Of a stretch of DNA of 64,000 bases, positions 493-64,000 are shown one piece after another; within the stretch, counting starts at the first letter, position 1; the number at the start of each line of letters is the position of its first letter. The notes under the pieces are model-generated. The model was not told where the DNA came from and did not search any database. It saw nothing but the letters and a program-made list of their open reading frames with translations. The translations under genes were made by a program, and so were the position numbers. Origin of the DNA: Actinomycetes bacterium (GTDB taxonomy: Bacteria > Actinomycetota > Thermoleophilia > RBG-16-64-13); contig JAGXFW010000025.1 in NCBI GenBank assembly GCA_024637035.1, forward strand, positions 11,626 to 75,625. The letters are read 5' to 3'.

Positions 493-1626
493 TCAGCCCA
501 GGTGAGCATCCACCGCCATCAATAGCGCGGCCGCGGCCCGATCGATGTCACCCGCCGTGGTCTGGATTCCGAGGGTGAGCCGAAGGGCACCCAGCGCCCG
601 CTCCGGCGAGAGTCCCATCGCCAGGAGCACGCCTGAGGGGCTGTCCTCGCCCTCGTGACACGCCGATCCGGTGGACGCTTCCACTTCGGCGCACGTGTCC
701 AGCACCTCCCGACCGAGCGCCCCAGGCACACTCACGTTCAACGTGTTCGGCAGCCTGTCGGTGAGGTGACCGTTCAGCTCGAGGCCGGGGATGCCCGCTA
801 CGAGTAGCTCGTGCAGTCGATCTCGCAGCGGCCGCACCTGTGTAGCAAACGTCGCCAGACCGCGCTCCAGCGCCAGGGCGCAGGCCTCACCCAACCCGGC
901 GATGTAGGCCACGTTCTCTGTGCCGGCGCGGCGGCCACCCTCGTGACCCGCGCCGTGGATCACCGGCTCGAGTGGCACACCAGCACGCACGAACAGGGCG
1001 CCCACGCCTTTCGGCGCCCCCATCTTGTGACCCGCCACCGTGAGCAGGTCGATGGCGTCGTCAAGCACGTGGATGGGCACCTTGCCGACGCTCTGAGCCG
1101 CGTCGATGTGGAAGAGCACGCCCCGCGCGTGGCAGAGGGCGGCGATCGGCACCACTGGGTTCATCACGCCGGTCTCGTTGTTGGAGTGCATGATCGACAC
1201 GAGCACGGTATCGCGTCGAAGCGCCCGGGCCACGTCCCCGGGACGCACGCGGCCGTCGCCGCCCACGGGCACCACGGTGAGCTCCCATCCTTCCCGCTCG
1301 AGAAAGCGGGCCGGAGCCGTCACTGCGGGGTGCTCCGTCGCAGAGATCACCAGGTGGCGGCCCTTGTCGCGGTGGGCGTAGGCGACTCCCTTGAGAGCCA
1401 GGTTGTTGCTCTCGGAGCCGCTGCCGGTGAAGACGATCTCGGTGGCGTCACAGCCCAGGAGCGCGGCCACCTGCCCTCGTGCCCGGGCCACCGCCGCGGC
1501 CGCTTCACGGCCCGCGGCGTGGTCACTCGAAGGGTTGCCGCCGGGACTGCGCAGGTACGCCTCGATGACCGTCGCCACCCGTGGATGCACTTGCGTGGTG
1601 GCGTTGTTGTCCAGATAGATGGGCAT
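493..1626 (-). CDS. iscS: Cysteine desulfurase (class V aminotransferase, IscS/NifS-like)
   Basis: 377-aa ORF starting MPIYLDNNATT, with a PLP-lysine context (AGHKMGAPKGVGAL) and the C-terminal SACHEGE catalytic Cys loop. Confidence 0.9.
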   Translation of the reverse strand: MPIYLDNNATTQVHPRVATVIEAYLRSPGGNPSSDHAAGREAAAAVARARGQVAALLGCDATEIVFTGSGSESNNLALKGVAYAHRDKGRHLVISATEHPAVTAPARFLEREGWELTVVPVGGDGRVRPGDVARALRRDTVLVSIMHSNNETGVMNPVVPIAALCHARGVLFHIDAAQSVGKVPIHVLDDAIDLLTVAGHKMGAPKGVGALFVRAGVPLEPVIHGAGHEGGRRAGTENVAYIAGLGEACALALERGLATFATQVRPLRDRLHELLVAGIPGLELNGHLTDRLPNTLNVSVPGALGREVLDTCAEVEASTGSACHEGEDSPSGVLLAMGLSPERALGALRLTLGIQTTAGDIDRAAAALLMAVDAHLG

Positions 1627-1842
1627 GGTCTCGCTCGACCCCCTCCGTTCCGACGATCCGGCGAACGTCCTTCACTTTCGGGCGACCCGCCACCTCTTGG
1701 CTTACATACCCGCCTACGAACTTCATGTATCCGAACGTTCAGTGCGGCGCACTCCGCTTCTCGCCACATGGCCAATGAAACGGCCGTCCGTCTCGGCGAA
1801 AGTGTCCGGTAGGCTACAACAGCGACCGTTCGGAGCTGCCAC

Positions 1843-3144
1843 GTGGATGCCATCGACAGCGGAGATACCGCCTTCATTCTCGTCTCGACCGCGCTGGTCA
1901 TGCTCATGACCCCGGGGCTTGCCCTCTTCTACGGGGGCATGGTGCGGAGCAAGAACGTCATGAGCGTCCTCATGCAGAGCTTCGTACTCATTGGTCTTGT
2001 GTCCATCGTGTGGGCCGTGATCGGCTATAGCCTAGCCTTCGGATCCGACCACGGGGGAGTGATCGGCTCACTGGAGTGGATAGGCTTGCGCGGTGTCGGA
2101 CAGGCGCCGAACGCCGACTACGCAGCCACCGTACCCCATCTGGCCTTCATGATGTTCCAGGGGATGTTCGCCGTGATCACTCCGGCGCTCATCACCGGGG
2201 CATTCGCCGAACGCATGAAGTTCTCGACGTTCCTCGTCTTCAGCCTACTGTGGACGGTGCTGGTCTACAGTCCGACAGCCCACTGGGTGTGGGGAGTGGG
2301 AGGATGGATCCGGGAACTCGGTGCTTTGGACTTCGCCGGCGGAACGGTGGTTCACGTCAGCTCGGCCGTAGCGGCCCTCGCTGCTGTGTTGGTCATCGGC
2401 CGGCGGCGTGGCCACGGGACGGTGGCCATGCATCCACACAACCTGCCCATGACCCTCATGGGCGCGGGCATCCTCTGGTTCGGTTGGTTCGGCTTCAACG
2501 CCGGCAGCGCCCTCTCCTCGGGAGGTCTCGCGACCCAAGCGTTCGTGACCACGCACCTCGCCGCCGCCGCCGCGGCTCTATCGTGGGCCGCCGCCGAGTG
2601 GGTGCATCGAGGCCAGCCGACCAGCCTCGGCGTGGCCTCCGGGTTGGTGGCGGGTCTCGTGGCCGTCACCCCAGCCGCAGGATTCGTGGGGCCGATGTCG
2701 GCCATCGTGATCGGACTTGTGGCGGGCAGCCTCTGCTACTTGGGCGTACTCGCGAAGTTGAAGCTGGGCTACGACGACAGCCTCGACGTCGTCGGCGTTC
2801 ACGGGGTGGGCGGCACGTTCGGTGCGATTGCAACCGGGCTCCTCGCGCAGGCGGCTGTCAACTCGGCGGGCGCGGACGGTGCTTTCTTCGGCAACCCAGG
2901 GCTGCTGGCCAAGCAGGCAGTGGCCGTGTTGGCGGTCATGGCCTGGTCATTCGGGATCACCTACGGCATCGTAAGCCTGCTCAAAGCGTTCATGGGCGCC
3001 CGCGTGGACGAAGAAGCCGAGATGCTGGGGCTCGACCTGAGTCAGCACAGCGAGGCAGCCTACGCATTCGGAGCGGATGGCGGTTGGCGTCTGCAGCCAG
3101 AGCAACTGGGCGGTCATCCCGAGGCGACTGGGCTCACGGGCTAG
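1843..3144 (+). CDS. amt: Ammonium transporter Amt
   Basis: 433-aa polytopic membrane protein with Amt signatures (DTAFILVSTALVMLMTPGLALFYGG, twin-His region). GTG start with GGAG upstream. Confidence 0.9.
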   Translation: MDAIDSGDTAFILVSTALVMLMTPGLALFYGGMVRSKNVMSVLMQSFVLIGLVSIVWAVIGYSLAFGSDHGGVIGSLEWIGLRGVGQAPNADYAATVPHLAFMMFQGMFAVITPALITGAFAERMKFSTFLVFSLLWTVLVYSPTAHWVWGVGGWIRELGALDFAGGTVVHVSSAVAALAAVLVIGRRRGHGTVAMHPHNLPMTLMGAGILWFGWFGFNAGSALSSGGLATQAFVTTHLAAAAAALSWAAAEWVHRGQPTSLGVASGLVAGLVAVTPAAGFVGPMSAIVIGLVAGSLCYLGVLAKLKLGYDDSLDVVGVHGVGGTFGAIATGLLAQAAVNSAGADGAFFGNPGLLAKQAVAVLAVMAWSFGITYGIVSLLKAFMGARVDEEAEMLGLDLSQHSEAAYAFGADGGWRLQPEQLGGHPEATGLTG

Positions 3145-3191
3145 GCCCCCGCGCGGCCGGACGCCCCCTGCTCGCGCCCCCTGCTCGCGCC

Positions 3192-6100
3192 CTACTTCTT
3201 CGCGAACTTGAACCCCGCGAACTGCCCCGAGAGCTTGTTCATGAACTCCGGGAGGTTGTCCCCCAGACCGGCCGCCTTGAGAGCAGCATCGCCGGCCTCC
3301 GGTTTCCACGCGCCCGAGGCGACCTTCTCGACGATATGCATGCCCTTCAGCATCTCGGGGGGCGTGGGCTTCATCTTGTAGTCCTGAGCCATGTAGCCTG
3401 TCTTCGTCTCGACGAAGGAATGCGTGGCTTTCTCTGCCTGCTTGTAGGCGTCCAGCGTATTGCCGTCATGATACGACTCGGCCACCTTGGTCTCGTAGGT
3501 CTTGCCCAGGCCGTCGGGGTCCCGAAGCGTCGACTTGCCCTGCTTGGTGAGCGACAGGTTGCTTGTGGTCTGGGTCCTTTCCAACTTCCCAGTCGCCGGG
3601 TTCTTGACCCACGCTTGGTCGGACATGTCCACGGAAGCTTCGGCGTGATAGCCATCGGTGGGGAGTTGCTGCCGCTGACGCGACCACTCCGCGGCCTTGG
3701 CCGGGTCCTTCGGACCGCCCGTGACCTCGGAGAAGATCTCCTGCGACTTCCCTGCCCACTTCTCCTTGGGGATCTCGATGAAGATGTCCTTGCCGGTCAC
3801 AGGGTCCTTCTTCACGATGCCGGCACGATAGTCGCGATCTGTGCCGTGCGCATCACCAAACGGTTCCACCTTCACCTTCTGACCCTTGGCCTCAGGCACG
3901 TTCTGCTCCACCCACTTCGCCAACTGCGCGTCGTGCTTGCCGTACACCTCCTGCCGCGCGTTGTCGTAGGCCTCCCACGCTTTGGGGTCGTTCTTCCGAA
4001 GTTCGCGCGCGCCGTCGGGGTCGCGCATGATCTTCTCCATGGTGGAGTGGTCTACCGTGGGCTTGCCGTCGGCCCCCTTCGTGACTTTGTCCTTCACGCC
4101 CTTCGCCATCTTCTGGGCCCGGGTGCCGGGATCGGGCGCGTCGAACTCGGGAGCGTGTGCCGCCGGCTTGTGCCGAACCGTCTGCTTCTTGGCGCCGGGG
4201 CCGGGATGCACGACGCTGCCCGGGGCCGGCGGTGGGCGAGGCGGCTTCTGGCCGGGCCTCACGACGCTGCCCGGAGCGGGGGGCTTCCGTCCTGGCTTGG
4301 GCGCCGTCGGGCGCTTGGGTGCCTCCACCTCGGGCGTCCCTTTCTTCGCCCCCGGGGTCGCCCCGGGGGTAGCGCCCGTCACCATGCGCAGGAAGCTGAT
4401 GATGGCTTGGTCACGCAGCATCTTGAGCGTGCGCTCCATGGCCCCGGTGATACTGTGCTCCGGGTCGAGAGCCCATTCCTTCGCGAACGTGTAGCCGATG
4501 AAGGCCAGCCACACCACGGCCTTGTTGCGCCCGGTGAGGTGGGCGATGAAGTCGGGGTCGGTCCACTGGCCCTCGACGACGTTCAAGCCCAGGACGATCT
4601 GCTGCTTCGCCCACCACGTGAGGTCGCGCCCGTCGACGTACGCCTCCATGGCCGAGACGAGGACGGGTTTCGCCATCCCCAGACCGATCGCGCCGAGGGA
4701 GCCGAGGATGGAACCGCTCGCCACCCCGAGAGCGATGTCGCCGCAGTAGGAGATCCAATCGAGCACCCCCTCCACCTGCTCGATGTACCAGGCGATCTCC
4801 TCCCAATCGGCAGCCTCTTGGCTGAAGGCGTTCTCCGAGATGTCCCAGACGCGCTTGCGCATCTCGTAGAGACCCTCGGCCCCCATGAGCGGGCCCCGCT
4901 CCACCACCAGGTCACGGAACTTCTGCTGGTGTTCGCGCGGGGCGAAGTCCTCGATGATCTTGAGACAGCGCTCGCGTTCCAGTTTCCATTCCGGGGAGAA
5001 GGGCGAGGTGTCGACGCCCAGCAGCTTCAGTGCCACGTCGGCGGAGAACTCCGGCTTGTCGAACCCAGGCACCGACGCGCGCAGGATCGCCGGCACGGGC
5101 TCCCCGGAGGTGGGGAGTTTCCGTGCCAGGACCGCCCTGAACGTCGCCGATGGGTTCTCAACACCGCGTCGTCCGGTGTGCTCGATCGTGAACTCGCGGA
5201 ACCCGAGCGCCGTGTGCCCCGGCGTCTTCTCAGGACCGCCCGGTCGCCACTCGACCGCGTCGGAGAGCTCCGGCTCCAGCCGGATCGTTCCGGACTCATC
5301 GCGCGCATAGACCCGCACGTCGATCTCGGTGGGTTCGCCCTCGCCCCGCGCCTCAAGGTGGAAGGTGCCGTCCGGGTGACGCCCCACCGGGTCCACGAAC
5401 AGGCCCTCACGGGTGACGCTCACCTTGAGATACCGCTCGAGACGGTCCCAGCCCTCGCCGTCCGCCGCAAGGACGAGGGTCGACACCTCTTCGGGACGAC
5501 CGATGTCGGGCAGGGCGACGGCGTCCTCGGTGAGGGTGACCACGGCCGTTGACGCCGTCTCCCGCTTGATCTCGACCCGGGCGACGGGCCGGTCGCCTTC
5601 CCGCCACTTCGACGTGAACGCCCACTCGAGGCCGCCGGGATTCTCGACCCACAGCACGGATTCAGCGATCTCTCGAGTGCCCACCGAGAACTCCACGGAG
5701 TCAGGCCGACAGTCGAGGACGGGCGGACGCTCCAAAGCCACCGTGACGCTCCCCTCGAGGATCTGCACGCCCAGCTGTGCGGTCGCGGCGACGCGAACGG
5801 ACTCCGGAGGGGTGACGGGATGGTCGGGATCGGGGGGTGACGCAGCGATGGGGATGGCCTTGCCGTCGGGCACGTCTACCTCTTCACCCACATCGAGCCA
5901 GTCGGCCGCCGACGGGCGGCCGAAGCGGATCGAACGCCGTGCCGTCTCGAGGTCGAAGGCGGGGTTGGCCTGCGCCGCCGGGCTGGGCTTCAGCACGGCC
6001 ACCACCCTCGCGACGTCGCGACCATTCGGCTTGAGCGACTTCCCGGGGGGCTCGAGGGTCACCTCGAGCGTGCTCTCCTGCTCGCCGGTGAGGGACACTT

Positions 6101-7217
6101 GAGCGGATGTCGCACCCTTGGAGGCCCGAGCCGCGACCCCGAGAGCGGCACCCGGCGCCACGTCCCCCGTCTGCCACACCGCGGCCTCCAGAGGCGACGG
6201 GCCGGAGGTCGGCGCCACCCCGACCCCCGGAGGCGGCCGCAGCGTCACGGTGGCGTCATCGGCTGGCTCCACTGCTCCCGAGGCGAGCACCTTCCACACG
6301 CGCGCCGAGAACCCGGCGGAGTACGCGGATGAGAGATCGAGATGTTCAGTGGAGAGTTCGAGCACATAGCCCACGTGCTCTTTGGGGTCGAGCTTCTTCT
6401 TCTTGCCGCGGCCGGAGGCTGCAGCACCGGCCACAGCAGCCGCCGCGGCCGCGACGGCGCCGGCTGCCGCGCCAGCGGTCTCCCAGGGGAGGCCACCCTC
6501 TGCGCTCTGGCTGCCACCACCAACCTGAGTCGAGCCGCCATCGGTCCACTCGATATCGAGGCCCTCGAATACCGTCTGATTCTCTGCCCACAGCGCATCG
6601 AGTTGATCGAAGTAGGCGGGTCGAACCATCACACCGCGTCCCACGAGAACTCCGACATCACCAAGTGGGATGTAGTAGGTGATCGATCGGCTCATCTCTA
6701 GAACCCCGGTGAAGGACTCACCCGTCGTCTCGACAGTCCCCTCGGTGAAGTATGCCGGCTTGCCGAACAACTCGATCGTGCCGTTGCGGTTGGCAACCGG
6801 TCGGTCGGAGTAGGTGGTGAAAGGCACGGAGGTGGCTTCTCCGCCTCCGAGAGGGTCCTGAATCGGGGTATTCGCAATGCGTTCCCAGTCGAACCCGTCA
6901 AGGAACACCTCGAGATCCTTGTACGGATCTCCCGGCACGATGGATACGAACACCGATGATCCGAAGGCCGGTAGGCCGTCCTCCGTACTCTCTTCGCGCT
7001 TGACCGATGTCAGGTAGTTCGGTTCTCCGTTGGGCGCGGCGTTCTCCTTGAACTGCCACGCTGCGGGCTGCACGTTGAACTTGACGGTGGCGACGGGCTC
7101 GGCGAGCGCGGGGGCGCTCCCGGCCAGCACCGCAAAGACGACGCTCCCGACGAGAAGACAGAGTCGGACGGTTCGCGACAGAGGAGTCACCGGTGTACGC
7201 CGCGCGCGAACGCTCAC
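3192..7217 (-). CDS. Large (about 1,342 aa) signal-peptide-bearing protein of unknown function, with beta-rich middle domains, a Pro-rich linker and a Lys-rich C-terminal domain
   Basis: The 1,609-aa track ORF is trimmed to a GTG at 7217 that overlaps the upstream gene's stop as GTGA. The trimmed start is followed by a Sec-type signal peptide (VRARRTPVTPLSRTVRLCLLVGSVVFAVLAGSAPALA|EP). No Walker A, HExxH or CxxC motifs were found. Confidence 0.6.
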   Translation of the reverse strand: MSVRARRTPVTPLSRTVRLCLLVGSVVFAVLAGSAPALAEPVATVKFNVQPAAWQFKENAAPNGEPNYLTSVKREESTEDGLPAFGSSVFVSIVPGDPYKDLEVFLDGFDWERIANTPIQDPLGGGEATSVPFTTYSDRPVANRNGTIELFGKPAYFTEGTVETTGESFTGVLEMSRSITYYIPLGDVGVLVGRGVMVRPAYFDQLDALWAENQTVFEGLDIEWTDGGSTQVGGGSQSAEGGLPWETAGAAAGAVAAAAAAVAGAAASGRGKKKKLDPKEHVGYVLELSTEHLDLSSAYSAGFSARVWKVLASGAVEPADDATVTLRPPPGVGVAPTSGPSPLEAAVWQTGDVAPGAALGVAARASKGATSAQVSLTGEQESTLEVTLEPPGKSLKPNGRDVARVVAVLKPSPAAQANPAFDLETARRSIRFGRPSAADWLDVGEEVDVPDGKAIPIAASPPDPDHPVTPPESVRVAATAQLGVQILEGSVTVALERPPVLDCRPDSVEFSVGTREIAESVLWVENPGGLEWAFTSKWREGDRPVARVEIKRETASTAVVTLTEDAVALPDIGRPEEVSTLVLAADGEGWDRLERYLKVSVTREGLFVDPVGRHPDGTFHLEARGEGEPTEIDVRVYARDESGTIRLEPELSDAVEWRPGGPEKTPGHTALGFREFTIEHTGRRGVENPSATFRAVLARKLPTSGEPVPAILRASVPGFDKPEFSADVALKLLGVDTSPFSPEWKLERERCLKIIEDFAPREHQQKFRDLVVERGPLMGAEGLYEMRKRVWDISENAFSQEAADWEEIAWYIEQVEGVLDWISYCGDIALGVASGSILGSLGAIGLGMAKPVLVSAMEAYVDGRDLTWWAKQQIVLGLNVVEGQWTDPDFIAHLTGRNKAVVWLAFIGYTFAKEWALDPEHSITGAMERTLKMLRDQAIISFLRMVTGATPGATPGAKKGTPEVEAPKRPTAPKPGRKPPAPGSVVRPGQKPPRPPPAPGSVVHPGPGAKKQTVRHKPAAHAPEFDAPDPGTRAQKMAKGVKDKVTKGADGKPTVDHSTMEKIMRDPDGARELRKNDPKAWEAYDNARQEVYGKHDAQLAKWVEQNVPEAKGQKVKVEPFGDAHGTDRDYRAGIVKKDPVTGKDIFIEIPKEKWAGKSQEIFSEVTGGPKDPAKAAEWSRQRQQLPTDGYHAEASVDMSDQAWVKNPATGKLERTQTTSNLSLTKQGKSTLRDPDGLGKTYETKVAESYHDGNTLDAYKQAEKATHSFVETKTGYMAQDYKMKPTPPEMLKGMHIVEKVASGAWKPEAGDAALKAAGLGDNLPEFMNKLSGQFAGFKFAKK

Positions 7218-8053
7218 TTCCGGAACCCCGCGATCGCCGTCGAGACAGCCAGCACCAGCCCGGAAGCCACGACCACCAGACTGGGGATCAGAGTCACCAG
7301 GCTGCCCGGGTCCGAACGGGCGCCGAAGGCAGCCACGCCCAGCGAGACGAGTTGCACCCCGCCCGTCACTATCGAAGCGATCCCGGTAAGAGCGCGCAAC
7401 CGGCCACCCCCCCGGCCTGCGACCATACCCAAGACCGAGGTCGCGGCCCCCGAAAGTACCCGCATCGCAAGCATGGGCACGTTGACTGCGCCTCCCGAGA
7501 GCAGGGCGATGAGCACATCCATCACCACCGTCACCGCAAGGCCGGCGGCCGGGCGGCGCAAGTTGGGCCGGGGAGCCATTGCCAACAACGACGGCGCGGC
7601 GGCACGGGCGAGCCCGGCGACGTCGGCGGTCTGTCCCCTCGAGATCGTCTGCCAGGGCAGCGTGAGCGCCAACCCTCCGAACGAGCCGACCGAACTCACG
7701 ATACCCGCTGCCGAGGCCGTCCCAGAGAGCACGGCCGTGACCCCCCCGGAGTGGGGCCGTGGGGGCGGAGGCGGGGTCGCGGTGGGCAGAGGCGCGGCTG
7801 TCTCGGGGGGGAGCGCGGGCGGCGAGCCCGCGGGCTCCGGTGTAGCGCCCGGCGAAGCCCCCACCGACGCGATCCGGGCACCGCAGGAGATGCAGAAGGC
7901 CTTCCCGGGCACCAGAGTCGAGCCGCACTCGGAACACGCAGCGGGCATCGGGGGCGACCCCGGTCGTCGGGCACCGCACGCCGTGCAGTACAGCACGCCG
8001 GGCGCCAGCTCGGCCCCACACGTGGTGCAGAAGGTCACCGAACGTGCGCTCAC
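7214..8053 (-). CDS. Double zinc-ribbon membrane protein
   Basis: Two CxxC...CxxC ribbons (CTTCG..CTACG; CSECG..CISCG), a Pro-rich linker, then 3-4 predicted TM helices. Its stop overlaps the downstream giant gene's start (GTGA). Confidence 0.6.
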   Translation of the reverse strand: MSARSVTFCTTCGAELAPGVLYCTACGARRPGSPPMPAACSECGSTLVPGKAFCISCGARIASVGASPGATPEPAGSPPALPPETAAPLPTATPPPPPRPHSGGVTAVLSGTASAAGIVSSVGSFGGLALTLPWQTISRGQTADVAGLARAAAPSLLAMAPRPNLRRPAAGLAVTVVMDVLIALLSGGAVNVPMLAMRVLSGAATSVLGMVAGRGGGRLRALTGIASIVTGGVQLVSLGVAAFGARSDPGSLVTLIPSLVVVASGLVLAVSTAIAGFRK

Positions 8054-54112: not shown

Positions 54113-54457
54113 CGGGGTAGATTGGCTTTTGCAGGCAAAATCCTTCACAAGCCGGGTTCGACGGTGCGCGAAATGACTCGTCGCGATGGGCTTATTGACC
54201 GCCGGGCCGGTATCTCGGGTGCGCCCGGGCGGGCGTGTGCTGGCGCGTCGTCGACCGGTCGCCCGAACGGTCCGTCCTTGAATGTCCGCGGAGGGTGCAG
54301 TCGGAGTTGACCCGAGACAAGGTTCTAGACACAGCGCCCGGCAGCCGTATACGATGCGCCTCAAAGCTGAAACTTGGCAAGCAGACCGAACAGTCAGCCA
54401 GCAGTTCGGTGCCTGAGCCGCAGGTTCCAGCCCACACGCAGACACCGGGAGGGGCAA

Positions 54458-57400
54458 TGAGGCAGAGGGGTCTCGGCAGGTGTGTCTCCGTCGCTGTGTT
54501 GCTCGTAGCGCTTGGCGCTCTTACCCTCTTCCTCGGTGGTCCAATGACACCGGCTCTGGGTGTGTCTCCATCCATTTCCACAGAGCCGGGCGTGGTACGC
54601 GAACTCGTTGAAAAGCGTACGGCCAACTCTCAGACCTTCCTGCTTTCCGACGGGCGGCTGCGCGCGGTCGTCAGCAGCGGCTTCGTCAACTACCGCGACG
54701 AGAGTGGCGCCTGGCGGCAGATAGACACACGTCTGGTGGCTGGCACGAGGTCCGGCGACTACGTATCCGCCGCGACCCCGATCGAGGTCACCGCAGCTTC
54801 AGACTCGCCGGCTCGTGTCTCTCTCGCCTATCAGGACTCCACCATCACCCTCGGTCCGAAGAACGCCCGTCCCGCACAGTTCAGCGTGCGGGATTCCGTT
54901 GCCACCTATCGCGGCATCGCGACGGACGCCGACCTCACCTACCAGGTCCTCGGCGACGGCGTGAAGGAGACCATCGTCCTGCGCTCTCCCAAGGCGGCGA
55001 ACACCTACACCTTCACCATCTCCCACCCGGGCCTGCTCCTGATGCAGGATGAGACGACCGGGCAGTGGGGGCTCCGCACCGCCATGGAGCACGACCCGCT
55101 CTTCGTCCTCGGTGGCTTGAACGTCGCCGACTCCTCAGTGAACGAAGCCGGCGATCCCGCCTACTCTGATGAGGCCGAGATGCGGGTGGAGCCGGGCACC
55201 GAGGAGAGCACCGTCACCTACACCGTCCCGCGCTCCTGGCTCGACGACAAGGAGCGCGTCTACCCGGTCCTCATCGACCCCACGGTCACCGCTGTCGCCT
55301 CCACGGGGGACACATTCGTATCGAGCGCCTCCCCCAACACCAACTACGGGTCCGATGACGACATGCACGTCGGGTATTACGACTCGACCACGGGTGACTG
55401 TCGTGGCCTCGTTCGGTTCGACCTCCCTGCCGACCTCCTCACCGGCGGCTACGTGCAGAGCGCCGATCTCTACCTGCGCCAGAACTGGCAGTCGGTGCTC
55501 GCCCCGAGCGTGGCCCGTGTGGGAGCCATCGACCGGGCCTGGAGCGAATCGAGCACCTACAACTCCCTCGGTGGCCACTACATCATCGAGGCCAAGGAGG
55601 TCGCCACCGTCGCGGCCCGGGCCCAGGACCTGCATTTCGACTTCACCCAGATGGTGCAACGGTGGGCCACCGGCAAGTACGTGAACCACGGGTTCGTGAT
55701 CTACCAGGAGTGGACCGAAGGGCAGACCTACTGGCGGAAGATCCTCAGCAAGGAGCACCCGACCTCGAGTTACAGACCCAAGCTCACCATCACCTACACC
55801 GCGCCACTCGACGTGACCGCTTCCCCGTTCAACGCGAAAGGAGACGGCACGACCGATGACACCGCGGCCATACAGGGCGCCATCAACGCCGCCGACCCGA
55901 ACGGCGGAGTCGTCTACTTTCCGAGCGGCACGTACAAGGTGGGCGGCTTGAACCTCGCCAAGAGCAACGTCGTACTCCGTGGTCTGGGCACCGCGAGCGT
56001 GCTCGTGCCCGCGTCCGCGGCGCAAGGTCATCTTATCCAGGTCGGTGGGGCGACCGCCGTCACGAACGTGCTCGTCGAGAACCTCAACCTGCGCCTCCCC
56101 CCGTCGGGCGGCGGGGTGAGTGTGGCGGGCGCGGGCGGAGGCAGCAACGTGCGCATCCGTAACAACACCTTCTCCGGAGGCAACGACTCGGCGACCACTC
56201 ACGCCCTTGGTGTGGCCGCGAACTTCACCTCAGTCGAGGTCACCGACAATGACTTGGCGCTGGTCACTTCGGTGCCGCTCGACATCGAAGGGGACTCCGG
56301 GTCTGAGCGCATCGTGGCCCGGAACACGATGCCAACCGCCCCCTACCAGGCCGACCTCATGTGGGGCATCGACCGCTACCAGACGGCCATCCGCCTCTCT
56401 CAAGCCGCCTTCCCCACCTGGGCAGAAGGAGTGGTGCTGGTCTCTGGTGAGAACTACCCAGACGCGCTCTCCGCAGGTCCCCTAGCAGCGGCCTACGACG
56501 GGCCCACCCTGCTCACGCAAGCGGCTTCACTCAATGTGGGCACCAAAGCGGAGTTGCAGCGCTTGAACCCAAGTCGGGTCTTCGTCGTCGGTCTCGGCAC
56601 CTCAATATCGGACGCGGTCACACACGCCCTGCCCTCAGCCCAGGTCACTCGGCTCGCGGGCCCCAGTCGGTACGACACAGCCGCCTTGGTGGCCGCAGAG
56701 GTCAAGACCAAGCGCTCCCTCGACGGCCTCAGCGTCACCAAGGTGGTCATCGTCCCCGGTGACGGCTACCCCGATGGACTCACCTCTGGACCCATGGCGG
56801 CCAAGAACGGCTGGCCCATCCTCCTCACCCCGAAAGCCGGGCCCATACCCGCGGCCACGCAGACCGCCTATCAGACTACCCTCGGCGTGAACCAGGCCGT
56901 CGTGGTGGGCGTGAACGCCGGCGTGGCTATCCCCGGCATCGAAAGTCACCGCATCAACGGTGCCGACGTCTTTGCGACCTCCAGTCTCGTGGCTCAGTAT
57001 GCCGTGCAGAACGGCTCCTCCTATGCCCACACCGCGCTTGCCACCGGCCTCAACTTCCCTGATGCTCTGGCCGCAGGCTCCTACCTCGGCGCCGACGGAG
57101 GCGTACTGCTCCTCACCAACGGGACCTCGATCGCTCCGGACTCGGTGGCGCTCCTCGAGGCGAACTACGCCGCCCTTGATACCCTCGACTACATCGCCCT
57201 CCCCTCGCTCTGGGAGGCCGATGAGAACTGCGGCGCTTGGCTGCCCGAGGCGCCGCAGCACACCTCGGTGGGCCTCGGTGCCTTCGCGCGACACGAAATG
57301 GGTGTCAGACTCGACCAAGGAACCCTGCAGGTGGCGGTCACTGACCTCGCCATCGACTCCTTCGGCCCCTCAGCCACGCTCACCCGGGTCTACTCCTCGT

Positions 57401-60400
57401 CGCGGACCTCGGAGCGGACGGCCGAGACCCTGGGCCTCCCGGGGTGGCGGTATACGTTCGAGCAGTCGCTCAGTTTCCCGAACGCCAACAGGATCGACTA
57501 CACCGATCCAACGGGCGACATCCACATTTTCGTGCGGAGCGGCCCCTCGACGGCCGATTGGTGGACACCGCCGGCGGGCTACGCCGCCAACCTCGGGAAA
57601 GACGGCAGCGCGTGGAAGCTGAAACTCCCCGGCGGGAACACCCTCGTCTTCGACTCCTCCGGCAGGTTGCTCTCCGAGGCCGACCCCAACGGCAACACCA
57701 CCACCTACAACTACACCGGGGGCGTTATCGACAGCATCAAGGCCGCGAACGCCCAGGTGATCGACGTGACCGTGAGCGCCGGCGCGTTGACCGGTGCTGT
57801 CTACACGACAGCCGACGGCGTGCGAGCAGTCGCATACGACAAGGCGGCGAAGACCGTGACCTACTTCCCAGGTGTCTCCGGCCTTGAGCACGTCGTGAAC
57901 TACACCTACTCGGGTGATCTACTCTCATCCATCAAGGCTCTCGACTACACTACGAGCAGCGATCCGGCGGCGGCGTTCACCTATTCGTCCGATCGCCTCA
58001 CCCAGTACAAGGCGCCCGACTACAACGCCACGACCAATACCGACGCCCGCACCGAGATCGCCTACGGCACGAAGACGGCCACACTCACCGCCTACGGGTT
58101 CGTGTATTCTGCCTCGGCCATCACCGGTGCCGCGAACACCCAGATCACCCAAACCTTCACCTGGAACGATTCCGGCACCATGGCCTCGAAGACGAATCCG
58201 AAGACGTCGTCCGAGACCACGACTGAGACCTGGTACTACCAATACGAGCCGAGGACCAACCTCCCGACTAAGGAGACCGACCCGCTCGGCAAGACCCGCA
58301 CCTGGACCTACAACCTGCGTGGGAACCAACTCACCGAGACCGACCAACTGAACCGGACCACCACCTACTCGTATCCTGACACCGACCCCGGCATCCCGCA
58401 CTACCTGCAGATCCGGGTAGCTGCGGACGGAGACGACGCACGCAAAGAGGGCCCGACTGTCTACGCGACCGGGTCCGCCTGGCAGGCCGTGGGGAAGGGC
58501 TCTTCGGTGCTCAGCGAAGGCTGGCGCTTCCGGAACGTGGACATCCCCAAAGGGGCCACGGTCCGCGACGCCCGGGTCCACCTCTACGCAGCGTACGACG
58601 CGAACGGCAATCCGGCTTCGGTGGTCTCGAAGATCGGTCTGGAGGCCGCGGACAACCCCGGGGCGTGGGCGCAGACGACGCACGAGCCCATCCTCAGCAA
58701 GCTGACCACCACCCAGGCGGCCTGGTCGGTAAGTGCCTGGAAGCAGGGGCAGTGGTACTCCTCACCCGATCTCTCCGCCTCGGTCACCGAGGTGATCGGG
58801 CGCACCGGCTGGGCGGCCGGGAACTCCATGGCCGTCATCTGGGCCGATAACGGGACCGCAAGCGGCAACTACCTGAAGTCGGGCGACTACTACGGCGGGA
58901 ACCCGGCGCTCTTCACCGTCTACTACACCGTCCCCTTCGACCCAAACCGCGACGAAGTGGGCGGGGTCACCGACCCCCTCGGGTCGAAGACTACGGTCAC
59001 CCGCGACAAGAACACCAACCCCACCGAGGTCACACGCACTCTGAACGCGACCCAGTCGGAGAGCACCAAGTACACCTACGAGGACGAAGCGGTCGGCTCC
59101 GCCACCTACAAGGGCGCTCTCACACTGGAGGAGAAGCTCATCAGCGGCACATGGGGCGGTGCCAACGCTGCCACTGCCACCGACTACGACACCGGCGGCT
59201 ACGCGACGAACGGACAACCGAACAAGGTGGTCCAGAAGACGGTGGCGCTGCAGGAAGGCCAGTCCTCTCCACCCGACCTCACCACCACCTACACCTTCGA
59301 CGACTTCGGCCAACTCGAGAAGGAGACGAACCCTGACGAGGTACTTGTGGCCGACAACACCTACGACAAAGCCGGTCGGCTGCTCATTTCGATCGGCCCC
59401 GCCTTCCCCTCCGGAGGGGGTCCTGCCACCCAGGTGAAGACCCACCACGTGTACAACGGCTGGGGGTTCGAGACCGAGACCTATCAGACTTCGACCGCCG
59501 ACCCCGGGGCCGCCAAGTACAACCGCTCGGTGGTCGCCTACGACCGTGCCGGTCGGGTCCTGACGGTCAAGGATCGCTTGAGTTCCACGACGTTGGTGCG
59601 TATACGCACCAACATCTACGACGGCCGAGGACTCCTCATCTCCACCGACGACACCACGGTCAGCGACCTTGACGCGCGCACCGCGTACGACGCCCGGGGC
59701 CAGGTGGTCGCGTCGTGGGCGGGCGGCGCCTGCACGGGAACCGACTATGAGATCGCCAAGGCCACCCGCTACCTCGATGGAACCACCCCCGCCTATGACG
59801 CTCTCGGTCGAGTGACAAAGAGCGCTCCCCCGGGCGACAACCCCACCACCTTCACCTACTACGACGACGGGCGCCTTCACACCAGGGTGCTGCCCGACGG
59901 CTCGCAGGAGACCTACACCTACGACGCCGGCGGCAACCTCACGCAGACCGTCTCCACCAAGGACGGCACGAGCTCGGCCACCTACGACCTCGGCGGGCGC
60001 CGCCTGACCCAGACGAGCGCCGCCGGCCTCACCACGAGCTTCGCCTACGATCTCCTCTCCCGGATCACGAGCGCCGGCGCGGGTCCGGCCGCCTCCACCT
60101 ACGCTTACAACACCCTCGGCTGGCAACTACGGGTGACCGACGCCGACGGCTTTGCGACGGTCCGCGTCTTCGACAAACTCGGACGCACGATCTCGGAGAC
60201 GACCGCCGATGAGACCACCACCTCGACCTACGACCCCGCCGGACACCTCACGAAGCAGGTGGATCATCAAGGCCGCTGGCGGGAGCTCTCCTATGACCTC
60301 ATGGGGCGGGTGACGCGGGATCTGCAAACCTTGTCTGGCACCCCACGGGTCTCGGTGAAGGACACCACCCTCACCTACGACTCGCTCGGGCGGGTGCTCA

Positions 60401-62394
60401 CCACCTCCGACGCCGTTCGCAATCTGGGGCACACCCTGACCTACCCGGAGAACACCCCCGCCCCCACCACCGACCAGGCCGTGGTGGGCACCACAGGCAC
60501 CGACGCCGTCCAGACCACCCTCACCGTGGCTGCTGACGGATACGAGACCAGCCGAGCGAGCGAAATCTACAGCAACCCCGCACTCCCCACCATCACCCGC
60601 ACGGTGGGCCCGCGCGACACCGCGCACCGTCCGACCCAAGTCACCACCCAGACCGGCGCCTCCACCTCCATCTCTGCCCAGTACTCCTACGACACCGCCG
60701 GACGCCTGAAGCGTCAATGGGGTCCCACGGGCGCCGCGGGCTCCGGCTACCTCGCAGGTGCCGCCACCACTGACGCCTATACCTACCACCCGACCACAGG
60801 CCTAAAGACCGGCGAGAACCTCCGCCTCCAGAGCGTAGGCACGGCCGGGGTCCTCACCGCCTCCTACACCTACACGACCGCCGGCCGCCTGGCGACCGCC
60901 ACCGTGAACGGCGTCTCCGACACCACCACCTTCGACCCAGCCGGGAACCTCACCAGCTTCACCGGCACCACCCTCACCTATCAAGAGAACCGCCTGGCCA
61001 CCACCGTCACCGGTGGCGCCACCACCTACTACACCTACGATGCCGGGAAGCGCTGGCGTCTCTCCCAAGGCACGACCACCAACACGAGCGACCCGAACCG
61101 CATCCGCTACACCTACACGGCCCAAGGGCGCTTGGCCACCTACCTGAACCCGAGTACCTCCGTCTCCGCCGCCTACACCTACGACCAAGAGGGCCAGCGC
61201 ACGCAGTCTGCGGTGACCATAGGTTCGCAGACCACCGCCACCGACTTCTCCTACCAGGGACTCCAGCTGCAGAGCCTGGGAGCCACACAAAGCGGCGGCA
61301 CCAACCCCACCTCCTGGAAGGTCACCTACCTCTACGACGAGCAGGGCCGCCCCTACGGCGGTGTCTACCGGAGCCCGAAGGAGAGCATCGCCCCTCTATA
61401 CTTCGGCATCCTGACGAGTGACCGAGGCGACATCGTCTCCCTCCTCGATGCAAACGGCACCCCCTTCGCCGCCTATCGCTACGACGCCTGGGGCAAGCCC
61501 ACCGGCACGGGGAACGTCGGGACCGGCGTGTGGAGCAAGTCCACGAGTCTCATCTCCGCCGGAGTCGCAAGCGCCATCGCGACCCGACAGATCCTCCGCT
61601 ACGCGGGCTACGCTTTCGACCAAGAGAGTTCCCTCTACTACCTCTCCTCCCGGAGCTACGACCCCGTCACCCGACAGTTCCTCTCCAAGGACCTCTCCCG
61701 CAACGACGGGGAAGAGAGTGCCTACCAGTACTGCGGAGGGAACCCGGTGGCGGGGGTGGATCCTACGGGGTATCGGATGGACGAGTTCGCAACGTCGCAG
61801 GAGCGGCAGGCGGCGGAGATCTCCCGGGGTAGGATCAAGAAGGCACAGAGGGCGTCGAAGGCACGGGTGCAGCGGCGGAGATTGGACGAGAAGGGCCCCA
61901 AGCTACCTACATCTGCTGGAAACCGATTGCGGGGCCTTGGAGTTGCGCTCGATTTATTCACGGGATACGGTTCGCGAGACCGTGTGTACAGCCCATCGTC
62001 CCCCGAGACCAATGAGATGCGACATGCCTGGGGCCGAGACATGCGCGATGCCTTCGCTAAGGAAGACTACCGGTCTACCAGGTGGAAGTCGGGTCATGTT
62101 ACGCCCTTAGTGATGCAGTTGGCCTCTGGTCCCGACATCTTCAACACCATGAGCCAGGCCGGCGGTGTCTCGGGTACTGTAGCGCCCTTACCGGATGGGA
62201 GGGCCAAGTTCGAAATCACAAACGAGGCCGGGAGGGAGTCGTTCTTCAATTTCATCAACCTACCGCTTGAGCTGTTGGTGCTCGGTTCAGCCAACAGCCC
62301 AGTCATCTCGAATGCTGACAAGGAAGAGGGTCCCTGGAGCACGATACGGCAGACCTTCTACTGGTATGAGTCCATGGAGGACCTTACAAGATGA
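54458..62394 (+). CDS. RHS/YD-repeat polymorphic toxin with cell-wall-anchoring N-terminal domains and a C-terminal toxin domain of unknown family
   Basis: Start refined to ATG 54458 (GGGAGGGG RBS), followed by a signal peptide (MRQRGLGRCVSVAVLLVALGALTLFLGGPMTPALG). N-terminal domains: a DNRLRE-like domain (DGRLRA ... NTNYGSDDDMHVGYY ... LVRFDL), a pectate-lyase-like beta-helix (GDGTTDDTAAIQGAINAA ... VYFPSGTY) and three CWB2 repeats (YQTAIRLSQAAF...; SRYDTAALVAAEV...). Repeat region: many YD repeats (YTYDAGGNLTQ etc.) and an RHS core ending at YDPVTRQFLSKDLSRNDGEESAYQYCGGNPVAGVDPTGY. The final tip is a roughly 200-aa unclassified domain. Confidence 0.9.
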
Positions 62395-62864
62395 CCAAGA
62401 GCAGTCGTCGTGTGCGGGGATGCGGAACGACTGCCATCGCGGTCGCGCTGGCCCTGATCGGGTTGACGGCAGCATTGATGTGGCCGTTCCCAGTCTCCGA
62501 CGGCCATCCCTCCGGCCTTGTCGGGACATGGAAAGGAGAGGGCGTGCCGTTTGAGATGAGATCTTCGAGTGAAGACAACGAATTTCAAGTGGTGCTCATT
62601 TTGGCTCCCGACGGGTCGAGCCACGAGGAAATCTGGCGGGCTGGTCGCTTGGAACGGACTCTCTCCGGGAGTTGGGTCGTCGAAGGTGGTCGTCTGCGGG
62701 TCACGTTCATCGACCCAACACTTGACGACGTGCAGATGGAGCCACCGGCTCGGATGTCGGTCCCCGTCTACTGGGGCCTCAGCCAAGGTACCTACATTGA
62801 TGGCGGTGGCCATGGGGATGCCGGCATCGCCTTGCACAAGACGTCCTCCGAGGTCTCCCGATGA
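62391..62864 (+). CDS. Putative cognate immunity protein (membrane-anchored, lipocalin-like)
   Basis: Start overlaps the toxin stop as ATGA. N-terminal signal anchor/TM (TAIAVALALIGLTAALMW) and GTWKGEG...RVTF. Confidence 0.55.
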   Translation: MTKSSRRVRGCGTTAIAVALALIGLTAALMWPFPVSDGHPSGLVGTWKGEGVPFEMRSSSEDNEFQVVLILAPDGSSHEEIWRAGRLERTLSGSWVVEGGRLRVTFIDPTLDDVQMEPPARMSVPVYWGLSQGTYIDGGGHGDAGIALHKTSSEVSR

Positions 62865-62994
62865 GTAGTCGAGTGGTGGGTAGCGGAGGAGGGAGCGGCC
62901 GCTGCCATCGCAGAGACGATCAAGCCTTTGGGGGCTGATATCGTTGTACGCCTACGAGGGCCTGGCGCAAGGCTCGCTGCGGACCCCGAACACT

Positions 62995-64000
62995 ATGGGT
63001 TTGAACACGCAAAGCGGCGGCACCAACCCCACCTCCTGGAAGATCACCTACCTCTACGACGAACAGGGCCGCCCCTACGGCGGCGTCTACCGGAGCCCGA
63101 CAGAGAGCACCACCCCCCTCTACTTCGGCATCCTGACCTCAGACCGAGGCGACATCGTCTCCCTCCTCGACGCCGCCGGCGCCCCCTTCGCCGCCTACCG
63201 CTACGACGCCTGGGGCAAGCCCACCGGCACGGGGAACGTGGGGACCGGCGTCTGGAGTAAGAGCACCGGCCTCATCAGCCTGCAGGTGGCCACCGACCTG
63301 GCCAAGCGCCAACCCCTGCGCTACGCTTCCTACTGCTACGACGCAGAGAGCTCCCTCTACTACCTCTCCTCCCGGAGCTACGACCCCACAACGAGGCAGT
63401 TCCTCTCCAAGGACCTCTCCCGCAACGACGGGGAGGAGAGTGCGTATCAGTACTGTGGGGGGAACCCGGTGGCAGGGGTGGATCCTACTGGGTATCGGAT
63501 GGACGAGTTCGCGACGTCGCAGGAGCGGCAGGCGGCGGAGATCTCCCGGGGTAGGATCAAGAAGGCGCAGAGGGCATCGAAGGCACGGGCCATGTACAGA
63601 CGACTGAACCCAGGGGAGTCTGCAGCCAAGGAGGGCACCGCGTTCTCAGCGTCCCTATCCGTGCCCGGAGGCATGCGCGGACTGCTGAACCGCTTGTCCT
63701 TCGACCCCACTCCTTATCGCTACAGGGATAAAGGGTCGAACGTAGGGGTTCCTGGTGTTCCTATCGGCGTGAGCAACGGCACGGCCGTCAACTACGGGCC
63801 CACCGGGAGGGCGGTCTCCTCTGTTCCCTACGACGGCATGTACTTGGGCGGCCTACCCGCCTACTACGATCAGACTGGCTACGGTAGTGTTGAGCCCAAC
63901 ACCCGGTATGTGCAGGGTGGTTTGGGGTTCATCGTAGGTGCCAACTTCAGTATGAACCTCTCACGGATCGGCGACGCCTACTCAGCTGCCTATGAGCCCG
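62995..64000 (+). CDS. Orphan RHS C-terminal cassette (RHS core fragment plus alternative toxin tip), partial, continues beyond the window
   Basis: A frame open from 62884 to the window end that is not in the ORF track. It encodes GTNPTSWKITYLYDEQGRPYGGVYRSP ... YYLSSRSYDPTTRQFLSKDL...GGNPVAGVDPTGYRMDEFATSQERQAAEISRGRIKKAQRASKAR, which is near-identical to residues about 2279-2470 of the upstream RHS, followed by a divergent C-terminus. The first in-frame ATG is at 62995. Confidence 0.7.
   Translation, partial: MGLNTQSGGTNPTSWKITYLYDEQGRPYGGVYRSPTESTTPLYFGILTSDRGDIVSLLDAAGAPFAAYRYDAWGKPTGTGNVGTGVWSKSTGLISLQVATDLAKRQPLRYASYCYDAESSLYYLSSRSYDPTTRQFLSKDLSRNDGEESAYQYCGGNPVAGVDPTGYRMDEFATSQERQAAEISRGRIKKAQRASKARAMYRRLNPGESAAKEGTAFSASLSVPGGMRGLLNRLSFDPTPYRYRDKGSNVGVPGVPIGVSNGTAVNYGPTGRAVSSVPYDGMYLGGLPAYYDQTGYGSVEPNTRYVQGGLGFIVGANFSMNLSRIGDAYSAAYEP

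Follow-up and report, generated by a model that had tools for sequence, protein, structure and literature searches.

Does the RHS core end that recurs downstream of a long rhs gene, with a different sequence after each copy, mark a junction at which toxin tips are exchanged? We addressed this question in a 64,000-nt stretch of DNA (the window), where the main rhs gene (54457-62394), a candidate immunity gene termed imm1 (62391-62864), a spacer (62865-63005), a second copy of the core end (63006-63590) and a second tip (63589-64000) follow one another on the forward strand. This is very probably an Rhs/WapA-type polymorphic-toxin locus, consisting of a full-length rhs gene, its cognate (candidate) immunity gene and a silent orphan cassette. 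The layout is the known "orphan cassette" arrangement that enables toxin change by recombination, and the finding is real but ordinary. A full-length rhs gene with a duplicated core end carrying an alternative tip represents both what tip exchange acts on and the trace that it leaves, and to that extent the original prediction of a toxin-tip swapping junction stands. The swap itself, which had been attributed to recombination between the repeats, does not, as repeats in the same orientation would instead remove tip 1 together with imm1, or act after a duplication.

The main rhs gene encodes a predicted wall-anchored Rhs protein

The main rhs gene (54457-62394, forward strand) encodes 2,645 aa with Pfam and NCBIfam matches and starts at ATG 54457, with GGGAGGGG 5 nt upstream. 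By inspection the N-terminus is hydrophobic (MRQRGLGRCVSVAVLLVALGALTLFLGG) and was read as a Sec-type signal peptide. It is followed by a DNRLRE domain (55309-55794, E 2.1e-29), a pectate-lyase-like domain (55828-56022), three CWB2 wall-binding repeats (best at 56362-56619, E 2.7e-37), DUF6531 (57319-57531), YD/RHS repeats (PF05593, E 7.6e-32 over five stretches; TIGR01643, E 2.7e-23) and the RHS-associated core (61567-61770). The YD/RHS repeats, TIGR03696 core and variable tip are those of an Rhs/YD-repeat polymorphic toxin, and the signal peptide seen by inspection together with the wall-binding domains is the WapA-type combination; no PAAR or VgrG match was found in Pfam and NCBIfam searches of the gene. 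On this domain content the protein is predicted to be a Sec-exported, CWB2 wall-anchored Rhs of WapA type. An inverted repeat between 59762-59793 and 61749-61780 (81%) looked on inspection like a chance likeness among YD-repeat DNA. Scans of the window for Rfam families and tRNAs gave no matches.

The core end forms a mosaic direct repeat

The final part of the main gene's constant region (copy 1, 61284-61868) recurs at 63006-63590 (copy 2) as the core end of a 5'-truncated orphan rhs fragment. The two copies form one direct repeat of 585 bp at an offset of 1722 nt and, since this offset is divisible by 3, lie in the same frame. The length agrees with the roughly 580 bp proposed earlier, but the near-identity proposed with it does not hold: identity was 86.8% without gaps, or 511/586 columns when one compensated pair of 1-nt indels was allowed, and was patchy. 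Blocks of 30 nt were mostly 77-100% identical in 61300-61539 and 61630-61869 and 50-67% identical in the centre of about 90 bp (61540-61629). Perfectly matching stretches of at least 20 nt measured 33, 20, 29, 41, 36, 38, 23 and 53 nt, the longest lying at 61792-61844, and 175 of 194 residues were identical at the protein level. Self-comparison of the sequence, suggested earlier as a check for 61000-64000, recovered the repeat well clear of the chance level (across the whole window, the second-best ungapped match of 585 nt reached 38%), albeit at 87% identity.

Both copies matched TIGR03696 Rhs_assc_core (E 2e-16 for the main gene, 3.4e-17 for the orphan) and both encode the core end followed by the same post-core peptide, as the original prediction had it. 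Between the copies dS exceeded 1 in the centre and was about 0.25-0.31 on either side of it, and a dN/dS of about 0.2 indicates that both evolved as coding sequence. The 3' boundary at 61868/63590 is as sharp as claimed, with identity falling to about 17-37% beyond it, and the continuations read VQRRRLDEKG and AMYRRLNPGE exactly as reported. A faint xxxRRL[DN] likeness continues past this junction. In DNA the similarity also starts abruptly at the 5' boundary (61284/63006); a weak protein relic lies 5' of it (FSYQGLQLQSL versus YAYEGLAQGSL), which 20 of 500 shuffles equalled or bettered. The antisense ORFs over the repeat were set aside as its shadows, a by-product as already proposed, with 46 identical residues in common where 45 had been counted.

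The constant region continues past the core-end motif

The core-end motif PxxxxDPxG[L/Y], a predicted autoproteolysis site, is present as PVAGVDPTGY at 61744-61773 and 63466-63495, both copies carrying Y where PxxxxDPxG[L] has L. It is followed at 61774-61866 and 63496-63588 by a basic linker of 31 aa, RMDEFATSQERQAAEISRGRIKKAQRASKAR, which is identical in the two window copies (dN 0, dS 0.146) and has a core-like GC3 of 0.87. Among 121 related core ends, homology stops at the core-end motif in all lineages except that of the window, and the sequences after DPxG are unrelated. In the window's lineage the constant region extends 31-50 codons past the canonical cleavage motif, and hence the recombination zone would reach equally far. 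In this lineage six or more kinds of tip are fused to the linker, and the same tips are joined to it at differing points across genomes. This post-motif constant region of 31-50 codons, shared by at least six tips, is modestly new.

The core-like GC3 of the linker, its dN/dS (roughly 0.2-0.9, median about 0.3 in eight copies) and the varying positions at which the same tips are joined suggest a tentative reading, in our view an unlikely one, in which the 31-50-aa basic segment (RM[DE]EFATSQER...KAR..RR[LM]NPGE) is a functional, lineage-specific pre-toxin module kept on the released toxin. Regarding PT-TG pre-toxin segments, no Pfam family was found at E up to 10 for two linker-containing relatives (P0001 and P0002), and the window's linker plus tip 1 had no Pfam match at E up to 0.01. 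If the reading were true, the module may hold the tip inside the shell or aid target access, and the linker would also be a preferred crossover zone, giving at least six unrelated tips one N-terminal adaptor. One constant linker after the predicted cleavage site, fused to many tips, forms a natural series.

Two unrelated tips and a candidate immunity gene

After 61868/63590 the sequences of tip 1 and tip 2 are unrelated, and composition breaks at the junctions, GC3 being 0.85-0.89 in the body, repeats and linker (0.85 over the main reading frame) versus 0.69-0.72 in tip 1 (0.69), imm1 and tip 2 (0.72). Tip 1 (61867-62391, forward strand) comprises 175 aa with its stop codon at 62392-62394. It had no Pfam match, and an exhaustive phmmer search found 18 remote homologs, most of them preceded by RHS core-end motifs. 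An AF2 model reached pLDDT 79 and pTM 0.72 and had no significant fold match in the PDB. These results point to a rare putative toxin-domain family at the C-terminus of RHS-core proteins, one that has neither a Pfam model nor a solved structure. That tip 1 belongs to such a family is modestly new, and a rare domain outside Pfam with a confident predicted fold matching nothing solved is a testable object. Tip 2 (63589-64000, forward strand) is open at the window end with 137 aa visible, roughly 30-60 aa missing as judged against the 206-aa P0001, and likewise no Pfam match. As the window stops inside tip 2, an immunity gene of this tip, of the kind proposed earlier to hitch-hike in a swap, would lie outside it.

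The imm1 gene (62391-62864, forward strand) encodes 157 aa with an N-terminal membrane anchor or signal peptide and a beta-rich domain. Its start overlaps the rhs stop as ATGA, with GGAGG at 62376-62380 as its ribosome-binding site; imm1 is translationally coupled to rhs and is a candidate for the immunity role. The membrane anchor of this candidate hints at an envelope target. No Pfam or NCBIfam match was found for imm1, and the relatives recovered were an identical protein and one 86% variant, which adjoins a variant of tip 1 in a related strain assembled from another run (L084). The AF2 model was poor (pLDDT 44, unusable), with a helix at 13-28 and then strands.

Origin of the orphan cassette

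The orphan is a 5'-truncated fragment downstream of a full-length rhs gene in the same orientation, with a homologous core end (585 bp, 87%) and then a distinct C-terminus (CT), which is the make-up of an orphan rhs-CT. The spacer and 5' stub (62865-63005, forward strand) hold in-frame stops at 62866 and 62881 and a YD-repeat relic, YAYEGLAQGSL, at about 62947-62979; no DNA homology to the main gene was found upstream of 63006. Judging from the family, the YD shell would enclose the C-terminal piece and an aspartyl-protease core would cut after PVAGVDPTG(Y), releasing linker plus tip. The orphan would most likely derive from a cassette (core end, tip and immunity gene) of another rhs lineage that recombined into the gene end and, under the "C-terminal displacement" model taken from the family, pushed the older tip downstream. 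The two 87% direct repeats could still serve as a RecA substrate. A crossover between them would delete tip 1 and imm1 and fuse the body to tip 2; alternatively, a crossover after tandem duplication would let both versions coexist, as proposed for Salmonella.

Copy 2 might instead be a small toxin gene with expression of its own, initiated at ATG 62995 or at a GTG or TTG close by and acting in a toxin-antitoxin-like manner within the producer. No stop interrupts its reading frame between 62884 and the window end, ATG 62995 is in frame, ORFs of this sort are called by gene finders in relatives (P0001 and P0002), and Salmonella RHS elements including an orphan are reported to behave like type II toxin-antitoxin systems (PMC7043789). 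However, there is no ribosome-binding site (Shine-Dalgarno) before 62995, and no promoter-like or terminator-like site in 62865-63005, the promoter/terminator scan as a whole being at chance level. The fragment has no signal peptide or shell needed for export, and the L084 orphan is 5'-deleted, suggesting weak selection on the slot. We consider this explanation improbable.

Under another explanation, the gene end was recently duplicated in tandem in place and the tips then diverged, with no horizontally acquired cassette involved; this would account for copies that lie side by side in one orientation and frame with an identical linker peptide. It is nevertheless very improbable given the dS of 0.25-0.31 (above 1 in the centre), the unrelated tips with GC3 below that of the body, and the orphan's upstream stub that has no DNA likeness to the main gene. 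In addition, the orphan allele is closer in the centre than the main copy to two related contigs, L002 (30:2 informative sites) and L081 (28:5). Along the whole repeat, L002 was orphan-like at 14:6 and then 30:2 sites before becoming main-like (4:2), and L080a was orphan-like (13:7) and then main-like (23:10 and 10:4). The core-end alleles are thus mosaic and, with the variable joints, show past exchange in the lineage. Because identity is mosaic at 87% and because of the dS, copy 2 is best read as a diverged allele from another rhs lineage.

The Logan contig L001 (SRR13628065), an independent assembly, equals window positions 61815-63039 at 100% identity, running through tip 1, imm1 and the spacer into the first 34 nt of copy 2 and ending exactly where k=31 words lose uniqueness; the order tip 1, imm1, start of copy 2 is therefore reproduced in a second assembly. 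Exact look-up of imm1 returned solely a 1.2-kb Logan contig. That two coexisting strains with different tips were stitched serially through a common core end is highly improbable in the face of L001, of L084 with the same adjacency of imm1 and spacer, of a truncated YD relic typical of orphans and of the main-plus-orphan layout in about 27 related loci, although the sequence is probably from a metagenome-assembled genome (MAG), its relatives are all MAGs and the closest MAG contig, L002, is oddly inverted and itself possibly chimeric.

Comparison with known systems

A 2009 study by Jackson et al. reportedly treats E. coli Rhs elements and the C-terminal displacement model. The window shares with E. 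coli Rhs a conserved core rich in GC, tips that differ from it in composition and older, displaced tips that keep a core piece downstream, but belongs to another phylum, uses another predicted export route and has its core/tip boundary downstream of PxxxxDPxGL. A general cassette model has been described (PMC3482391). The closest parallel in layout is STM0291/STM0292 of Salmonella Typhimurium LT2, a full-length rhs gene, an immunity gene and a same-orientation 5'-truncated fragment with a different CT, joined by a main/orphan repeat of about 0.5 kb (522 bp, 95%; Koskiniemi et al. 2014, PMC3967940). There, the orphan toxin is switched on when the two repeats recombine, an event proposed to follow duplication so that immunity is retained (PMC3967940); for the window such an event is predicted. 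The window repeat differs in being 87% identical and mosaic and in continuing 94 nt past DPxG, and with 13% divergence and a longest exact run of 53 nt, homologous recombination should be considerably lower than in Salmonella. Salmonella Rhs is T6SS-associated and Gram-negative; the window Rhs is actinobacterial and, by prediction, Sec-exported and wall-anchored.

WapA orphans have been reported in Gram-positives, including Streptococcus suis WapA-CT1 with an orphan CT2 (PMC12704120). The window protein resembles WapA of B. subtilis and S. suis in its Sec signal, DNRLRE-containing wall-binding region, DUF6531, Rhs shell and RAC core, in a C-terminal piece (its release predicted here) that opens with a constant pre-toxin segment, and in the downstream immunity gene and truncated "Rhs orphans". 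It differs in wall binding, which is predicted to be through CWB2 repeats and a pectate-lyase-like domain rather than LysM, and in its post-cleavage segment, which is basic, 31-50 aa long and gave no match to the PT-TG model of Pfam. The genes neighbouring the main rhs gene encode PALP and DUF72, and none upstream of it is srtB or secF-like. CdiA-CT/CdiI orphans are similar as promoter-less toxin-immunity cassettes keeping a short constant stretch for recombination (Poole et al. 2011, PMC3150448); CdiA, unlike the window Rhs, is a two-partner-secretion filament with a VENN boundary and no Rhs shell.

Related loci and strains

Orphan arrays were common in MAGs of related Actinomycetota, Thermoleophilia and Coriobacteriia. 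Of the related loci, 27 held two to seven core-end matches each, some on megabase-size contigs, and main/orphan repeats there were about 100-1440 bp long and 82-100% identical, mostly ending at DPxG. A related locus, L080, mirrors the window, with a truncated Rhs followed by an Imm53 gene and by an orphan whose repeat (379 bp, 87%) terminates within the linker. Main-plus-orphan Rhs architecture has been studied best in enterobacteria, and the window locus carries it over to uncultured members of these groups, hosts whose Rhs is predicted to be exported by the Sec route and anchored by CWB2 repeats; the understanding of toxin-tip exchange is unchanged by it.

Searches for a recombinant (main body plus tip 2) or a tip 1-less variant of the strain in genome, metagenome and protein collections returned none. 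The genome-contig collection scanned does not contain the source genome and gave a best match of 94%, at a contig end; a metagenome scan with a degenerate linker pattern returned three contigs from one sample, none of them recombinant, and a scan of viral contigs for recombinants or other strains returned nothing. The comparison of strains, put forward earlier as a way to find alternative arrangements, thus bore out rearrangement but not a recombinant of the strain itself: L084 is 100% identical to the spacer over 62865-62971, is rearranged at 62971/62972 and carries a different, 5'-deleted tip in the orphan slot, and the joints vary among relatives. In a further related locus, L082, small membrane-protein ORFs were present 3' of the tips.

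The rhs locus contains a diverged direct repeat

The locus is a standard main-plus-orphan arrangement, with a repeat less identical than originally claimed. The original prediction correctly recognised an Rhs tip-exchange junction at a real repeat, which it described as a near-identical block of about 580 bp. A repeat search returned two neighbouring families of direct repeats (61284-61554, 90% identity, and 61564-61863, 87%), each with its partner copy 1722 nt further on. Local alignment merged both into a single 585-bp block, 61284-61868 (copy 1) against 63006-63590 (copy 2), with one compensated 1-nt indel pair. When scanned at fixed offset, identity was about 0.3 before the block, reached 0.97 within 61284-61300 and dropped past 61868 to 0.37 and then 0.17. 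The next-best 585-nt match within the whole window was only 38%, excluding a chance origin. However, "near-identical" overstated the similarity, as identity was 86.8% ungapped, or 511 of 586 columns in the gapped alignment. It fell to 50-67% in the stretch 61540-61635, and no exact run exceeded 53 nt (61792-61844). Further exact runs of at least 20 nt measured 33, 20, 29, 41, 36, 38 and 23 nt.

The encoded peptides agree at 175 of 194 residues, and codon differences comprised 36 synonymous and 19 non-synonymous changes. dN and dS between the copies were 0.05 and 0.25 in the 5' part (61285-61539), 0.42 and 1.09 in the central ~96 nt (61540-61635), 0.01 and 0.31 in the 3' part (61636-61866), and 0 and 0.15 in the linker (61774-61866), a basic segment that follows the core-end motif. 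On these values both copies evolved as coding sequence and are old, mosaic alleles, not the product of a fresh duplication. The peptides quoted in the prediction were correct, with both copies encoding PVAGVDPTGY and then RMDEFATSQERQAAEISRGRIKKAQRASKAR before continuing as VQRRRLDEKG or AMYRRLNPGE, and the residues shared by antisense ORFs (46 identical) were indeed a mere result of these ORFs overlapping the repeat.

The main rhs gene carries a rare tip and is followed by a candidate immunity gene

The main rhs gene (54457-62394, plus strand) encodes a 2,645 aa product from the ATG at 54457, with GGGAGGGG upstream and a signal-peptide-like N-terminus. Its domains are DNRLRE, pectate-lyase-like, three CWB2 wall-binding repeats, DUF6531, RHS/YD repeats and the TIGR03696 RHS-associated core; domain searches detected no PAAR or VgrG domain. 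The product is predicted to be a Sec-exported, wall-associated protein of the WapA type. Its parts are in the same order as in Streptococcus suis WapA, studied by experiment, which has a signal peptide, DNRLRE, wall binding, DUF6531-Rhs, RAC and "PreT-CT" (PMC12704120). The rest of the window (8301-44109) holds ordinary chromosomal metabolism genes (fused 3-hydroxyacyl-CoA dehydrogenase/enoyl-CoA hydratase, thiolase, succinate dehydrogenase/fumarate reductase flavoprotein, methylmalonyl-CoA mutase, succinyl-CoA ligase, carboxyltransferase and a class I tRNA synthetase), which places the rhs locus on the chromosome. Scans of the 64 kb found neither tRNA genes nor Rfam matches. A very long minus-strand ORF at 3192-8021 has a coding-like GC3 of 0.81 and no Pfam match at E 1e-5; an internal start that resembles a signal peptide (…RLCLLVGSVVFAVLAGSAPALA) points to a large protein that is secreted or membrane-bound.

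Tip 1, which ends the main gene, matched neither Pfam nor NCBIfam. When 1.84 billion representatives were searched exhaustively with phmmer, the result was 18 remote homologs (E 3e-16 to 6e-4), most of them placed after RHS core-end motifs and having in common the motifs FLxDFLxGxGxxxRxY, QVGGF, NNGDGTVTF and GPMRTIxQTFxWTE. An AlphaFold model built on the homolog alignment gave a confident alpha/beta fold (pLDDT 79, pTM 0.72) with no significant match in the PDB using Foldseek. This rare tip family, with neither Pfam model nor solved structure, is modestly new.

The imm1 ORF (62391-62864, 157 aa) starts at an ATG overlapping the rhs stop codon (62392-62394), with GGAGG ten nucleotides upstream. 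Its protein has a basic stretch, a hydrophobic helix and then a beta-rich domain (a low-confidence model, relied on for the helix only). No family match was found in Pfam or NCBIfam, and the only relatives were an identical protein and an 86% variant, which also directly follows a tip-1 variant. We read imm1 as the candidate immunity protein for tip 1, exposed on the outer side of the membrane; this hints that the target of the tip-1 toxin is the envelope.

The imm1 gene and copy 2 are separated by a spacer of 141 nt, in which the reading frame meets stops at 62866 and 62881. Copy 2 is in the same reading frame, matches TIGR03696 (E 3.4e-17) and continues into a different tip (tip 2, 63589-64000) running off the window end. 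There was no Shine-Dalgarno sequence ahead of the in-frame ATG at 62995, and the spacer contained nothing resembling a promoter or terminator. All that was detected before 63006 was a weak YD-repeat relic (YAYEGLAQGSL against FSYQGLQLQSL, p ~0.04 by shuffling); the full core of a relative has FAYEGL at the position of YAYEGL. Together these features identify copy 2 as a 5'-truncated orphan rhs fragment. Tip 2 had no Pfam match and was weakly related to P0001, a linker-carrying protein (43% identity, in an alignment that includes the shared linker).

The rhs body has a GC3 of 0.85, the repeat copies 0.86 and 0.89, and the linker 0.87. Values are lower in tip 1 (0.69), imm1 (0.70) and tip 2 (0.72), and the constant/variable boundary is therefore also a compositional boundary. 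Such a break is the classical mark of tips moving as cassettes.

Recombination between the copies would delete tip 1

Crossover between same-orientation repeats deletes the intervening DNA. The original prediction proposed that recombination across the repeat would swap the tip, but repeats in this orientation delete what separates them. A crossover here would join the rhs body to tip 2 with loss of tip 1 and imm1, and the resulting cell would no longer withstand tip 1 from its siblings. The main gene and orphan of Salmonella LT2 have 522 bp in common at 95% identity, compared to 585 bp at 87% in the window, and it was proposed that recombination after locus duplication keeps one intact copy and the immunity gene, making the change reversible (PMC3967940). 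The 13% divergence should make crossover rarer than in Salmonella, but it would still be feasible given eight exact runs of 20-53 nt. Toxin-immunity pairs have been described to move as cassettes and recombine onto a constant 5' body (Zhang et al. 2012, PMC3482391). The layout is best explained by the arrival of a cassette in the past, which pushed the tip then in place downstream. Neither the predicted main-by-orphan recombinant nor other direct evidence of current switching was found in the genome, metagenome and protein collections searched.

Past exchange was assessed with an allegiance test, in which sites differing between the window copies were scored by which copy each relative resembles. 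Three related loci, L002, L081 and L080a, were orphan-like in the 5' part (14:6, 16:3 and 13:7). In the centre L002 (30:2) and L081 (28:5) were orphan-like and L080a was main-like (23:10), and at 61626-61773 all three were main-like (4:2, 10:4 and 10:4). Homology to the window main gene persists upstream in all three and is lacking in the orphan. As allegiance switches while the upstream flanks match the main gene, core-end alleles have been shuffled among genes and cassettes.

L084, from a related strain in another sequencing run, carries tip-1 and imm1 variants ~90% identical to those of the window. Despite these ~90% flanks, the spacer was 100% identical over 107 nt (L084 1117-1223, window 62865-62971), and at 62971/62972 L084 switches abruptly into the middle of a P0001-like tip without a core end or linker. 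A deletion that extends to another orphan past the end of the window could have caused this break. The L084 arrangement shows that the content of the orphan slot varies from strain to strain and that orphans can decay.

In the closest relative, L002 (JAHJSA010000109.1, 454-7943), a minus-strand rhs body is 93.7% identical to window 54925-60916, and a core-end fragment (equivalent to window 60811-61707) is found on the plus strand, ahead of the start of the gene, with ~105 nt shared by the two pieces. Either a real inversion has split the gene, or the MAG contig is chimeric. Its last 31 nt are the first 31 nt of L061, another related contig.

Orphan arrays and a post-cleavage linker in relatives

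A scan of one genome per species, the source genome not among them, identified 78 related loci; the genomes that hold them are all MAGs, with the labels Actinomycetota, Thermoleophilia, Coriobacteriia or "Eubacteriales". Two to seven serial core-end matches were present in 27 of the 78 (five in L012, seven in L052), and orphan arrays appear to be the norm. Main/orphan repeats in these relatives were ~100-1440 bp at 82-100% identity, making the window repeat (585 bp, 87%) typical of the clade. The phylogenetic setting of the main-plus-orphan layout is modestly new.

Among 121 core ends compared, sequences were unrelated immediately past DPxG except in one small lineage with GY-RM[DE]EFATSQER... 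in common after the core. It comprises both window copies, L061 (the same sequence as L082), L080 (two copies), L081, L083, L084 and the proteins P0001 and P0002. Here the constant region reaches 31-50 codons beyond the cleavage motif, and at least six tips are attached to it; this downstream move of the constant/variable boundary, with a common post-cleavage linker, is also modestly new. Tip 1 joins after ...SKAR in the window and after ...RARTQYRRMNPGERGSAASKTASG in L084, and one other tip joins after linker residue 15 in L083 and ~residue 27 in L080. Linker dN/dS across copies was mostly ~0.2-0.5 (0.87 in one pair), looser than the core. The linker had no Pfam match, PT-TG included, and only two matches in a word-based search of 5.8 billion proteins.

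The related rhs of L080 (JGI 3300033553 contig) is 5'-truncated (780 aa). Upstream, at 900-6000, are IS (rve) transposase genes and defence-type DndB, GmrSD_N and a weak AbiTii match, and the first immunity gene after the L080 tip is Pfam Imm53. In L082 (~690-915) a small ORF for a two-/three-helix membrane protein (MAQEIAPLVVYECFIVLVIFLAVW...) comes after a tip that P0002 also has. The linker lineage includes several glycine-rich tips, a hint of toxins that act on membranes.
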